7,323 nt of DNA from a virus (lineage: Duplodnaviria; Heunggongvirae; Uroviricota; Caudoviricetes), in the IMG/VR virus record IMGVR_UViG_2671180577_000007; one strand, written 5' to 3'. The notes under the pieces were generated by a model. It saw only the letters and a program-made list of their open reading frames with translations. It was not told where the DNA came from and searched no databases. Shown piece by piece: positions 1,369 to 7,323 of this stretch. The translations under genes and the position numbers were made by a program. How positions within the stretch are numbered: position 1 is the stretch's first letter; every line of letters starts with the position of its first letter.

Positions 1369-4770
<3,402 letters not shown>

Positions 4771-4837: not shown

Positions 4838-5437
4838 ATGCGTAAACTTTATGCCGCCATTTTGTCCGCAGCCATTTGTCTGGCCGTATCCGGTGCGTCT
4901 GCATGGGCGTCTGAACATCAGTCCACGCTGAGCGCGGGCTATCTTCATGCCTCGACGAACGTTTCCGGCAGCGATGATCTGAACGGGATTAACGTGAAAT
5001 ACCGTTATGAGTTTACGGACACGCTGGGAATGGTGACGTCATTCAGCTATGCAGGAGACAAGAATCGCCAGCTTACCCGTTACAGCGATACCCGCTGGCA
5101 TGAAGATTCCGTGCGTAACCGCTGGTTCAGCGTAATGGCGGGGCCGTCTGTGCGCGTGAATGAATGGTTCAGCGCGTATGCGATGGCGGGTGTGGCTTAC
5201 AGCCGTGTGTCGACTTTCTCCGGGGATTATCTCCGCGTAATTGACAACAAGGGGAAAACGCACGACGTGCTGACCGGAAGTGATGACGGTCGCCACAGCA
5301 ACACGTCTCTGGCGTGGGGAGCTGGCGTGCAGTTTAACCCGACCGAATCCGTGGCCATTGATATTGCTTATGAAGGCTCCGGCAGTGGTGACTGGCGCAC
5401 TGACGGTTTCATCGTGGGTGTCGGTTATAAATTCTGA
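4838..5437 (+). CDS. lom: Lom outer-membrane protein (Ail/Lom/PagC family 8-stranded beta-barrel), 199 aa
   Basis: ATG at 4838 with GAGAGG RBS; N-terminal signal peptide ([24 protein letters not shown]). The C-terminus [25 protein letters not shown] matches the Lom/Ail family and ends in the aromatic residue typical of outer-membrane barrels. Position immediately after J matches lambda lom. Confidence 0.9.
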
Positions 5438-5490: not shown

Positions 5491-5501
5491 GTGGGGTGAA
5501 T

Positions 5502-6815
5502 ATGGCAGTAAAGATTTCAGGTGTACTGAAAGACGGCACAGGAAAACCGGTACAGAACTGCACAATCCAGCTGAAAGCAAAACGTAACAGCACCACGGTG
5601 GTGGTGAACACGCTGGCCTCAGAAAATCCGGATGAAGCCGGGCGTTACAGCATGGACGTTGAGTACGGTCAGTACAGCGTTATTCTGTTGGTGGAAGGAT
5701 TCCCGCCGTCACATGCTGGGACCATCACCGTGTATGAAGATTCCCGACCCGGTACGCTGAATGATTTTCTCGGAGCCATGTCGGAGGATGACGTCCGGCC
5801 GGAGGCACTGCGCCGTTTTGAACTGATGGTGGAAGAGGTGGCGCGTCACGCTGAGGAGGCGAAGAAGAATGCCGGAGAGGCGGAGACGTCAGCGAGGAAT
5901 GCCGGCATATCAGCCAGTCAGGCAGAAGAGAGCGCTGCAAATGCTGACACTTCAGCAGGGGAGGCATCGGAGTCAGCCCGGCAGGCGGCAGAAAGTGCAG
6001 CCTCAGCAAAGCAGTCAGAGGAGGCGTCCTCGTCCTCGGCTTCTGCGGCCGCTCAAAAAGCCAGTGAGTCATCACAAAGTGCAGCAGAAGCTGAATTGTC
6101 AAGAAAGACGGCAGAAAGTGCAGCCGGTAATGCAGCCAGGGATGCAACGACCGCAACAGAAAAAGCCCGGGAGTCAGCAGAAAGCGCACAGTCAGCGGAA
6201 CAAAGCAGGATAGCGGCGGAAGAAGCCGTAAACAGAATCCCCACCGTGGTGGGACCTCCCGGGCCAAAGGGGGAACAGGGGCCCGCGGGTCCTCAGGGGC
6301 CGAAGGGTGATAAGGGAGAGCGCGGTGACACCGGCCCTGTCGGGGCAACCGGCGAACGGGGACCGGCAGGTGATGCTGGTCCGGCAGGCCCGCAGGGGCC
6401 GAAAGGTGACAGGGGAGAGCGGGGAGAGACCGGTCTGACGGGAAATGCAGGTCCACAGGGTCCAAAGGGAGATACCGGTGCGGCAGGCCCGGCAGGCCCA
6501 CAGGGACCGAAAGGAGAAACAGGTGCGGCTGGCCCGGTGGGGGCAACCGGACCTCAGGGACCGAAGGGCGACCCGGGGGAGACACAAATCCGTTTTCGTC
6601 TGGGGCCGGGAAACATTATTGAGACAAACAGCAATGGCTGGTTCCCGGATACAGATGGCGCACTCATCACCGGACTGACCTTTCTTGCCCCCAAAGATAC
6701 CACACGGGTTCAGGGTTTTTTTCAGCATTTGCAGGTCAGGTTTGGTGACGGGCCGTGGCAGGATGTTAAGGGGCTGGATGAAGTGGGCAGTGATACAGGC
6801 AGAACAGGAGAATGA
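5502..6815 (+). CDS. stf: Side-tail-fibre-like protein with lambda-Stf-type N-terminus, Ala/Ser/Glu-rich repeat region, collagen-like (Gly-X-Y)37 domain and a short distinct C-terminal domain (437 aa)
   Basis: ATG at 5502 gives [37 protein letters not shown]..., matching the lambda Stf N-terminus as recalled; the ORF track starts 2 codons earlier at GTG 5496. It lies 64 nt after lom, as in lambda. An A/S/E-rich low-complexity region spans ~5850-6240, the uninterrupted Gly-X-Y run spans 6252-6584, and a 76-aa C-terminal domain follows before TGA 6813-6815. Confidence 0.85.
6252..6584 (+). repeat. Collagen-like triple-helix repeat: 37 consecutive Gly-X-Y triplets with a recurring GPQGPKGD/E unit
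   Basis: Translation [111 protein letters not shown], with Gly at every third residue and no interruption. The unit GPQGPKG recurs at least four times, with matching near-repeats at DNA level. Confidence 0.9.
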
Positions 6816-6816
6816 C

Positions 6817-7086
6817 ATGAACATATTAAAAAAAATTATGCAGCGTCTGTGCGGTTGCGGAAAGCATGATGACCGTGAAGACGGGGAGTTACTTACAGCA
6901 CAGCTGCGACTGGGACCGGCAGACATTCTGGAGTCAGATGAGAATGGCATTATCCCGGAGCAGGACAGGGTAATCACGCAGGTGGTGATACTGGATGCGG
7001 ATAAAAAGCAGATACAGTGTGTGGTAAGACCGCTGCAAATCCTGCGTGCTGACGGGAGGTGGGAAAATATTGGCGGGATGAAGTAA
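6817..7086 (+). CDS. Small hypothetical protein (89 aa), translationally coupled to the fibre gene; function unknown (candidate fibre chaperone/assembly factor or cargo gene)
   Basis: ATG at 6817 lies 1 nt after the fibre stop, with AGGAG (6806-6810) 6 nt upstream. Product MNILKKIMQRLCGCGKHDDREDGELLTAQLRLGPADILESDENGIIPEQDRVITQVVILDADKKQIQCVVRPLQILRADGRWENIGGMK is acidic with no signal peptide. The ORF track extends it upstream to 6685, but that part overlaps the fibre gene out of frame and lacks an RBS. A terminator follows. Confidence 0.55.
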   Translation: MNILKKIMQRLCGCGKHDDREDGELLTAQLRLGPADILESDENGIIPEQDRVITQVVILDADKKQIQCVVRPLQILRADGRWENIGGMK

Positions 7087-7100
7087 CCCGACAGCTTCAC

Positions 7101-7126
7101 AAAACCGGAGTCCGGCTCCGGTTTTT
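7101..7126 (+). terminator. Rho-independent terminator after the small ORF
   Basis: AAAACCGGAG (7101-7110) / CTCCGGTTTT (7116-7125) form a 10-bp stem with loop TCCGG and a T5 run (7122-7126), 15 nt after the TAA at 7084-7086. The A-tract/T-tract symmetry suggests it could work in both directions. Confidence 0.65.
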
Positions 7127-7171
7127 GTTGTCATGTAAGGCAGATGTTTGTTAAAGCTATTTAAGTCTGGA

Positions 7172-7198
7172 GTTTAAATGTAACCGGCTCATTTAAAC
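7172..7198. repeat. Perfect 9-bp inverted repeat (GTTTAAATG / CATTTAAAC) with 9-nt spacer in an AT-rich intergenic region
   Basis: Left arm 7172-7180 and right arm 7190-7198 are exact reverse complements; spacer TAACCGGCT. Neighbouring sequence has further TTAAA/TTTAA motifs (7151-7165). Confidence 0.5.
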
Positions 7199-7233
7199 CG
7201 TCTGGTCTGTTTCCTCCGGCTCTACAAAAATAA

Positions 7234-7255
7234 TGTCCATCATTTTTAATGGACA
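7234..7255. promoter_or_regulatory. 7-bp inverted repeat (TGTCCAT / ATGGACA) next to a -10-like AATAAT, immediately upstream of a new ORF start; candidate operator/promoter
   Basis: Arms at 7234-7240 and 7249-7255 with an 8-nt T-rich spacer; AATAAT at 7229-7234. No convincing -35 was found, so the promoter call is weak. Confidence 0.3.
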
Positions 7256-7262
7256 CTATCGT

Positions 7263-7323
7263 ATGAAACACCGGACCTGGATCACTGAAGCTTTACGTCT
7301 TCACTTTGAAGAACATTTACCCC
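7263..7323 (+). CDS. Possible 5' end of a downstream gene (partial; runs off the window)
   Basis: ATG at 7263 opens frame 3 (MKHRTWITEALRLHFEEHLP...), open to the window end. It follows the terminator and AT-rich palindromic region. Only 20 codons are visible and the RBS is weak (GGACA), so this is tentative. Confidence 0.25.
   Translation, partial: MKHRTWITEALRLHFEEHLP

Follow-up and report, generated by a model that had tools for sequence, protein, structure and literature searches.

Insertion sequences of the IS66 family carry terminal repeats of 20-30 bp whose first bases are GTAAGCG, together with an 8-bp direct repeat (PMC11946415, citing Ross et al. 2021), and 8-bp direct repeats are also listed for IS66-family elements in PMC3281130. 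An 'ISCro1' copy was given as 2,824 bp (PMC8764528). The left end of such an element (7180-7323, plus strand) closes the stretch of viral DNA analyzed here, a window of 7,323 nucleotides (IMG/VR record IMGVR_UViG_2671180577_000007) which holds the first 144 bp of an IS66-family insertion sequence 2699 bp long, labeled by PGAP as ISCro1 family. A palindrome at 7172-7198, in which the earlier note had seen the site of a dimeric DNA-binding protein or a recombination site, straddles the junction. It is very probably a by-product of transposition, produced where a known IS66-family end was joined by chance to its target.

The window covers the tail end of a lambdoid prophage, with genes confirmed using Pfam: a K-like NlpC/P60 protein (68-742), tail assembly protein I (640-1311), J (1372-4770; 1132 aa), Lom (4838-5437) and two tail-fibre proteins (5496-6815 and 6817-7086). 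After the tail-fibre genes, in prophage DNA of the plus strand, there is a hairpin of the intrinsic-terminator type, AAAACCGGAG-N5-CTCCGGTTTT (7101-7125). The terminator which had been claimed upstream of the palindrome was confirmed by its perfect stem (10/10 bp), by an RNA folding energy of -15.6 kcal/mol (z = -3.9) and by its conservation in all relatives. The DNA from 7126 to 7179 (plus strand) is prophage intergenic sequence, which from ~7157 onward forms the 5' leader of a cassette for an NleG-type (PF06416/DUF1076) effector and is ended at 7179 by the insertion sequence.

The palindrome has the form GTTTAAATG-N9-CATTTAAAC, with arms at 7172-7180 and 7190-7198 that are complementary at 9/9 positions across a 9-nt spacer, as had been described. 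The order across the site is GTCTGGA, GTTTAAATG, the spacer TAACCGGCT, CATTTAAAC and CGTCTGG. The left boundary of the IS, 7179/7180, falls inside this structure. Bases 1-8 of the left arm (7172-7179) are the target octamer GTTTAAAT, which is prophage DNA and is found also in the uninterrupted site; base 9 (G7180) is IS base 1, the first base of the left terminal inverted repeat (IRL). The right arm (7190-7198) comprises IS bases 11-19, within the IRL. The target octamer is matched in reverse complement by IS bases 12-19 (ATTTAAAC), and a ninth pair, between IS base 1 (G) and IS base 11 (C), completes the 9/9 match. The window's only two copies of TTTAAA are those in the arms, and because TTTAAA is self-complementary two copies are automatically a 6-bp inverted repeat, for which three further pairs suffice. 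As single-stranded DNA the palindrome folds at -5.8 kcal/mol (z = -2.67), above most shuffles, which is just what a 9-bp perfect repeat yields.

The palindrome was also considered as an intrinsic terminator and rejected, having an A+T-rich stem (2/9 G-C pairs) followed by CGTCTGG and no T-run, and an RNA folding energy of -8.6 kcal/mol (z = -1.28) that was equaled by 19/200 shuffles. A minus-strand 'terminator-like' site in the IRL (7200-7185), returned by a consensus scan, was likewise discarded as weak and mismatched, with an A+T-rich stem and no supporting context. An Rfam scan of 6900-7323 (E up to 1) placed no family at the palindrome and gave only a meaningless snoRNA match elsewhere. 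GTCTGG occurs both in the prophage flank (7165-7170) and in the IS right after the right arm (7200-7205); this pair extends the RNA hairpin by five G-U-containing pairs, probably by chance.

The boundary was located from both sides. When 6800-7323 was compared by megablast with 5426 complete E. coli genomes, there were many prophage matches with identity up to 99.7%, all of them ending at query base 384 (~7183), and the remainder of the query matched 'IS66-like element accessory protein TnpA'; phage records showed the same break pattern. The apparent overlap to 7183 consists of one gap and a chance TAA, and the true break is at 7179/7180. This particular IS/prophage junction was found by megablast in none of the 5426 complete E. 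coli genomes. On the IS side, 7175-7323 matched with 100% identity copies of the element in ogr, in gspO, in a glycosyltransferase gene and in a phage terminase gene, all of them unrelated loci. A 30-nt exact pattern served to gather IS left ends in IMG/VR (79 loci) and in species-representative genomes (35 loci; L007-L120 in all), and the start of the IS was defined as the point at which the 108 distinct 20-bp left flanks of the sampled copies diverge. Every copy begins GTAACCGGCTCATTTAAACCGT, and divergence sets in directly upstream of its first G.

The type of element was established from complete copies, which have terminal repeats, three genes including an IS66-type DDE transposase gene, and an 8-bp duplication. 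The IRL, GTAACCGGCTCATTTAAACCGT, occupies 7180-7201 of the plus strand (end approximate). Complete copies with the same left end as the window have a right terminal repeat (IRR) that reads GTAAGCGACTCGTCAGAACCGT in reverse complement and matches the IRL at 16/22 positions; the IRR begins exactly GTAAGCG, and the IRL begins GTAACCG, with one mismatch. The first four complete copies all had 8-bp duplications (CCGTAAAT, CATTAAAT, TCATAAAT and GATTAAAT); three were 2699 bp long and the fourth (L006) was 2681 bp with frameshifted genes. In a sample unbiased by flank bases, 16 of 22 complete copies had perfect 8-bp duplications and 19/22 were exactly 2699 bp. Complete copies encode tnpA (HTH_Tnp_1), tnpB (TnpB_IS66) and tnpC (DDE_Tnp_IS66, zf-IS66, LZ_Tnp_IS66 and the IS66 C-terminal element). 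For the copy L003, which is 100% identical to the window over 7175-7323, Pfam gave PF01527 (8.6e-15), PF05717 TnpB_IS66 (4.7e-40) and PF03050 DDE_Tnp_IS66 (1.5e-103) together with PF13005, PF13007 and PF13817, and PGAP labels TnpC an 'IS66-like element ISCro1 family transposase'.

The gene start that had been noticed downstream of the palindrome is genuine and belongs to tnpA, the IS66-family accessory gene, whose 5' part (7233-7323, plus strand; beginning MSIIFNGHYRMKHRTWITEALRLHFEEHLP) is in the window as its first 30 codons. The PGAP coding sequence in L003 begins 53 nt after IS base 1, at the window's ATG 7233 (MSIIFNGHYRMKHRTW...), and its translation matches that of the window; an alternative ATG lies in frame at 7263. 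The tnpA start codon is covered by an inverted repeat internal to the IS, ATAATGTCCAT / ATGGACACTAT (7230-7259, plus strand; 10/11). Its RNA hairpin (-8.6 kcal/mol, z = -2.66) ends 4 nt before the ATG at 7263, and it sits in a left-end stretch that is 100% identical across many copies. This repeat might gate tnpA translation or the choice of start codon.

Ten places encoding an identical J protein, none with the IS, were used for comparison of the empty site and of the cargo. In uninterrupted relatives the site reads ...GGAGTTTAAAT/TAAAATAGGGAG..ATG; this is an NleG-type effector gene's leader, and it has the left arm only. The empty site of E. coli FORC_042 (L001) is ...GTCTGGAGTTTAAAT/TAAAATAGGGAGTTTTATAATGCCG..., followed by a DUF1076 (NleG-type) gene and then nleA; its junction region is ...GAGTTTAAAT/TAAAATAGGGAGTTTTATAATG, given also as GGAGTTTAAAT/TAAAATAGGGAGTTTTATAATG. 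The same NleG-type leader occurs in L001, L002, L125 and L127, and the gene downstream is DUF1076 / T3SS_NleG. Related leaders have GTTTAAAT or GTTCAAAT, then TAAAA(T/C)AGGGAG, and lack the right arm; the left arm is GTTCAAAT in 3/5 of them. The neighboring TTAAAG and TTTAAG, which had been suggested as half-sites, are both present as strings. TTAAAG (7152-7157) is not conserved, being replaced in relatives by TTATAG, TTACAG or TTATGG; TTTAAG (7161-7166) is kept among relatives, but as part of the leader of the NleG-type gene.

The relatives with the identical 1132-aa J (L001, L002 and L121-L129) have in common the terminator and a short linker ending ..GATGTTTGTTA. Past this linker their cargo varies (NleG-type genes, NleB/SseK, NleF, IS3 or unrelated DNA), the switch point being ~7147-7156, right behind GATGTTTGTTA and not at the palindrome. 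The leader GCTATTTAAGTCTGGAGTT(T/C)AAATTAAAA(T/C)AGGGAGTTTT..ATG accompanies NleG-type cassettes. Independent insertions of the same 2699-bp IS occur elsewhere in this prophage region too (L002 4403, E. coli SCPM-O-B-7615; L065 and L049, IMG/VR). One of these insertions falls on the nleG-type start codon, 22 bp downstream of the site in the window, with the duplication TTTTGTTA and then a second, nested copy; another lies at GAATGACA (window 6808-6815), where the stop of one tail-fibre gene meets the start of the other.

The two arms were not found together outside the window. Among the 108 left flanks the best match to GTTTAAAT was 6/8, in five sites, and in this sample, unbiased by flank bases, none of the 108 ended in TAAAT. 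The right arm was present in every retrieved copy, the 30-nt retrieval pattern itself containing it. Empty prophage sites have the left arm only, and other IS copies have the right arm only, beside unrelated flanks. The exact 27-mer gave 0 matches in each of three collections (genome_contigs, viral_contigs and metagenome_contigs). By these sequence comparisons the arms belong to different DNAs and are never conserved together. The earlier note had named absence of the palindrome from homologous loci as one half of what would tell against a functional site, and that absence is what was found.

Chance was assessed with 500 first-order Markov shuffles of the window, in which perfect inverted repeats of at least 9 bp were counted. 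Spacers of 3-20 nt gave 0.59 repeats per window, with a probability of 0.37 for one or more; spacers of up to 12 nt gave 0.32 per window and a probability of 0.21. The view that an exact repeat of this kind is unlikely by chance in 7 kb does not hold, since about 37% of shuffled windows contain one (spacer 3-20 nt). A second perfect 9-bp inverted repeat, CTGGCGCAC / GTGCGCCAG with a 10-nt spacer, is found inside coding sequence at 23-50; repeats this large are evidently no rarity in the window. Chance is adequate to explain the palindrome.

The 108 flanks also showed that the IS weakly prefers targets of the palindromic form CN[GNTTAANC]NG, no position carrying more than 0.37 bit. The preference comprises C at -10 and, in the duplication, G at -8, T/A at -6, T at -5, A at -4, A/T at -3 and C at -1. 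Of the sites, 44% had G at duplication position 1, 53% had A at -4 and 49% had C at -10. The octamer of the window fits 5/6 of the positions specified within the duplication, and the position-weight matrix gives GTTTAAAT a probability of 2.5e-4 per insertion against 1.5e-5 for uniform choice (~16 times likelier), so that the coincidence was partly helped along by target preference. At least four independent E. coli insertions had flanks or duplications ending in TAAAT, cases selected by a query that began six bases before the start of the IS (five flank bases and T7179). The matrix predicts ~0.5% of sites ending in TAAAT, in agreement with 0/108 in the unbiased sample, and the number of TAAAT cases seems about as predicted. 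The coincidence is unremarkable because TTTAAA is self-complementary, because the IS weakly prefers GNTTAANC-like targets and because such repeats are common in 7 kb.

The geometry that had suggested an operator, with a dimeric regulator binding both arms and controlling the downstream tnpA, is real enough: arms of 9 bp and a 9-nt spacer fit a dimeric helix-turn-helix protein, the palindrome lies 35 nt upstream of the tnpA start, and TnpA itself has a helix-turn-helix domain. The left arm, however, lies outside the IS, and tnpA cannot depend on it because all 108 other sampled copies have unrelated sequence there; the uninterrupted prophage site has no right arm, and the exact sequence occurs nowhere else in the three collections. 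As the arms come from different DNAs and are never together elsewhere, neither an operator nor another protein site with two arms can be upheld, and we regard control of tnpA from this palindrome as highly improbable. Still harder to credit is a phage or island attachment site, or another site of site-specific recombination, at a prophage module junction. The location after the last tail gene, where relatives with identical J carry different cargo (NleG, NleB/SseK, NleF, IS3), would suit such a site, but the cargo of relatives switches after GATGTTTGTTA at ~7147-7156, the adjacent genes are IS66-family tnpA, tnpB and tnpC and not an integrase or recombinase gene, and the IS end wholly explains the discontinuity at 7179/7180. 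The place is moreover internal to the prophage, between the tail-fibre genes and the effector cargo, and the prophage sequence of relatives continues past it. What survives of the recombination-type boundary is the edge of a mobile element at 7179/7180, with the right arm inside its terminal repeat; the recombination site is the repeat at 7180-~7201 and not the palindrome. The module boundary, similarly, is a mobile-element boundary, but the element is an insertion sequence and neither a phage attachment site nor a prophage module junction.

It is also conceivable, if very unlikely, that the IS is drawn to targets resembling the inverse of its own left-end subterminal sequence (ATTTAAAC against the preference GNTTAANC). 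A transposase or TnpA bound at the IRL that also recognized TTTAAA-type targets, and so favored junction palindromes, would be a cause of comparably slight probability. Were this so, junction palindromes would be the footprint of a transposase-end complex reading the target DNA. The palindromic form of the preference CN[GNTTAANC]NG points this way, as do the 7/8 match of ATTTAAAC in the IRL to the idealized target GTTTAAAC, several E. coli insertions, independent of one another, whose duplications end in TAAAT, and a mean identity of duplications to GTTTAAAT of 3.05/8 against ~2.3 expected from base composition. The TAAAT cases, however, came from the design of the query; the unbiased sample had none, and its best matches to GTTTAAAT were those five sites at 6/8. 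At the corresponding position the right terminal repeat reads GTCAGAAC, so the resemblance exists at one end only, and the low-information matrix fully describes the preference. Since the observed TAAAT frequency agrees with that matrix, no steering by the element's own end needs to be supposed.

The palindrome is thus best read as a chance junction of IS end and target. The 2699-bp IS66-family element, with tnpA, tnpB and tnpC, inserted at 7179/7180 in the lambdoid prophage, just past its tail-fibre genes, and so lies in the leader of an NleG-type effector gene. The octamer GTTTAAAT (7172-7179) is the pre-existing target, and by the rule of the family a second copy is predicted at the far end of the IS, ~2.56 kb beyond the window. 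The far junction is expected to consist of the IS right end, ...ACGGTTCTGACGAGTCGCTTAC, and then GTTTAAAT-TAAAATAGGGAGTTTT..ATG of the nleG-type gene, the part after the right end being written also as GTTTAAAT-TAAAATAGGG. The IRL which starts at 7180, GTAACCGGCTCATTTAAACCGT, is presumably bound by the DDE transposase TnpC, which would act on this end. The palindrome arises only from the complementarity of IS bases 12-19 to the target octamer of this one copy. Comparison with the empty site places the insertion 20 bp upstream of the NleG-type start codon, between any upstream promoter and the AGGGAG ribosome-binding site, and it probably uncouples this type III effector gene from its native transcription.

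The finding is ordinary and already known, and it matters little. It removes a false lead, there being no operator or attachment site here, and it lets the end of the window be annotated correctly as a common IS66-family element. The weak palindromic target preference CN[GNTTAANC]NG, drawn from 108 insertion sites of this IS, is a mildly useful by-product.

Among known systems the nearest is the IS66 family of the canonical tnpA/tnpB/tnpC type, with which the complete 2699-bp copies share the three genes, the GTAA(G/C)CG ends and the 8-bp duplications. Nothing of substance differs, the IRL in the window beginning GTAACCG where GTAAGCG is usual. ISCro1 (Citrobacter rodentium, E. coli) is the nearest named relative by PGAP labeling, at 2699 bp here versus the 2,824 bp of PMC8764528. 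The operators of dimeric helix-turn-helix repressors, for example those of lambdoid phages, are alike in geometry only, having two inverted 9-bp arms with centers 18 bp apart; in contrast to such operators, the present site has no joint conservation of its arms and no cognate regulator, and its arms are of different evolutionary origin. The closest parallel to the palindrome itself is found in the chance repeats that transposon insertion creates at junctions, a generic explanation and not a named family, in which likewise one arm is target DNA, the other is element DNA and the whole is unique to one event.
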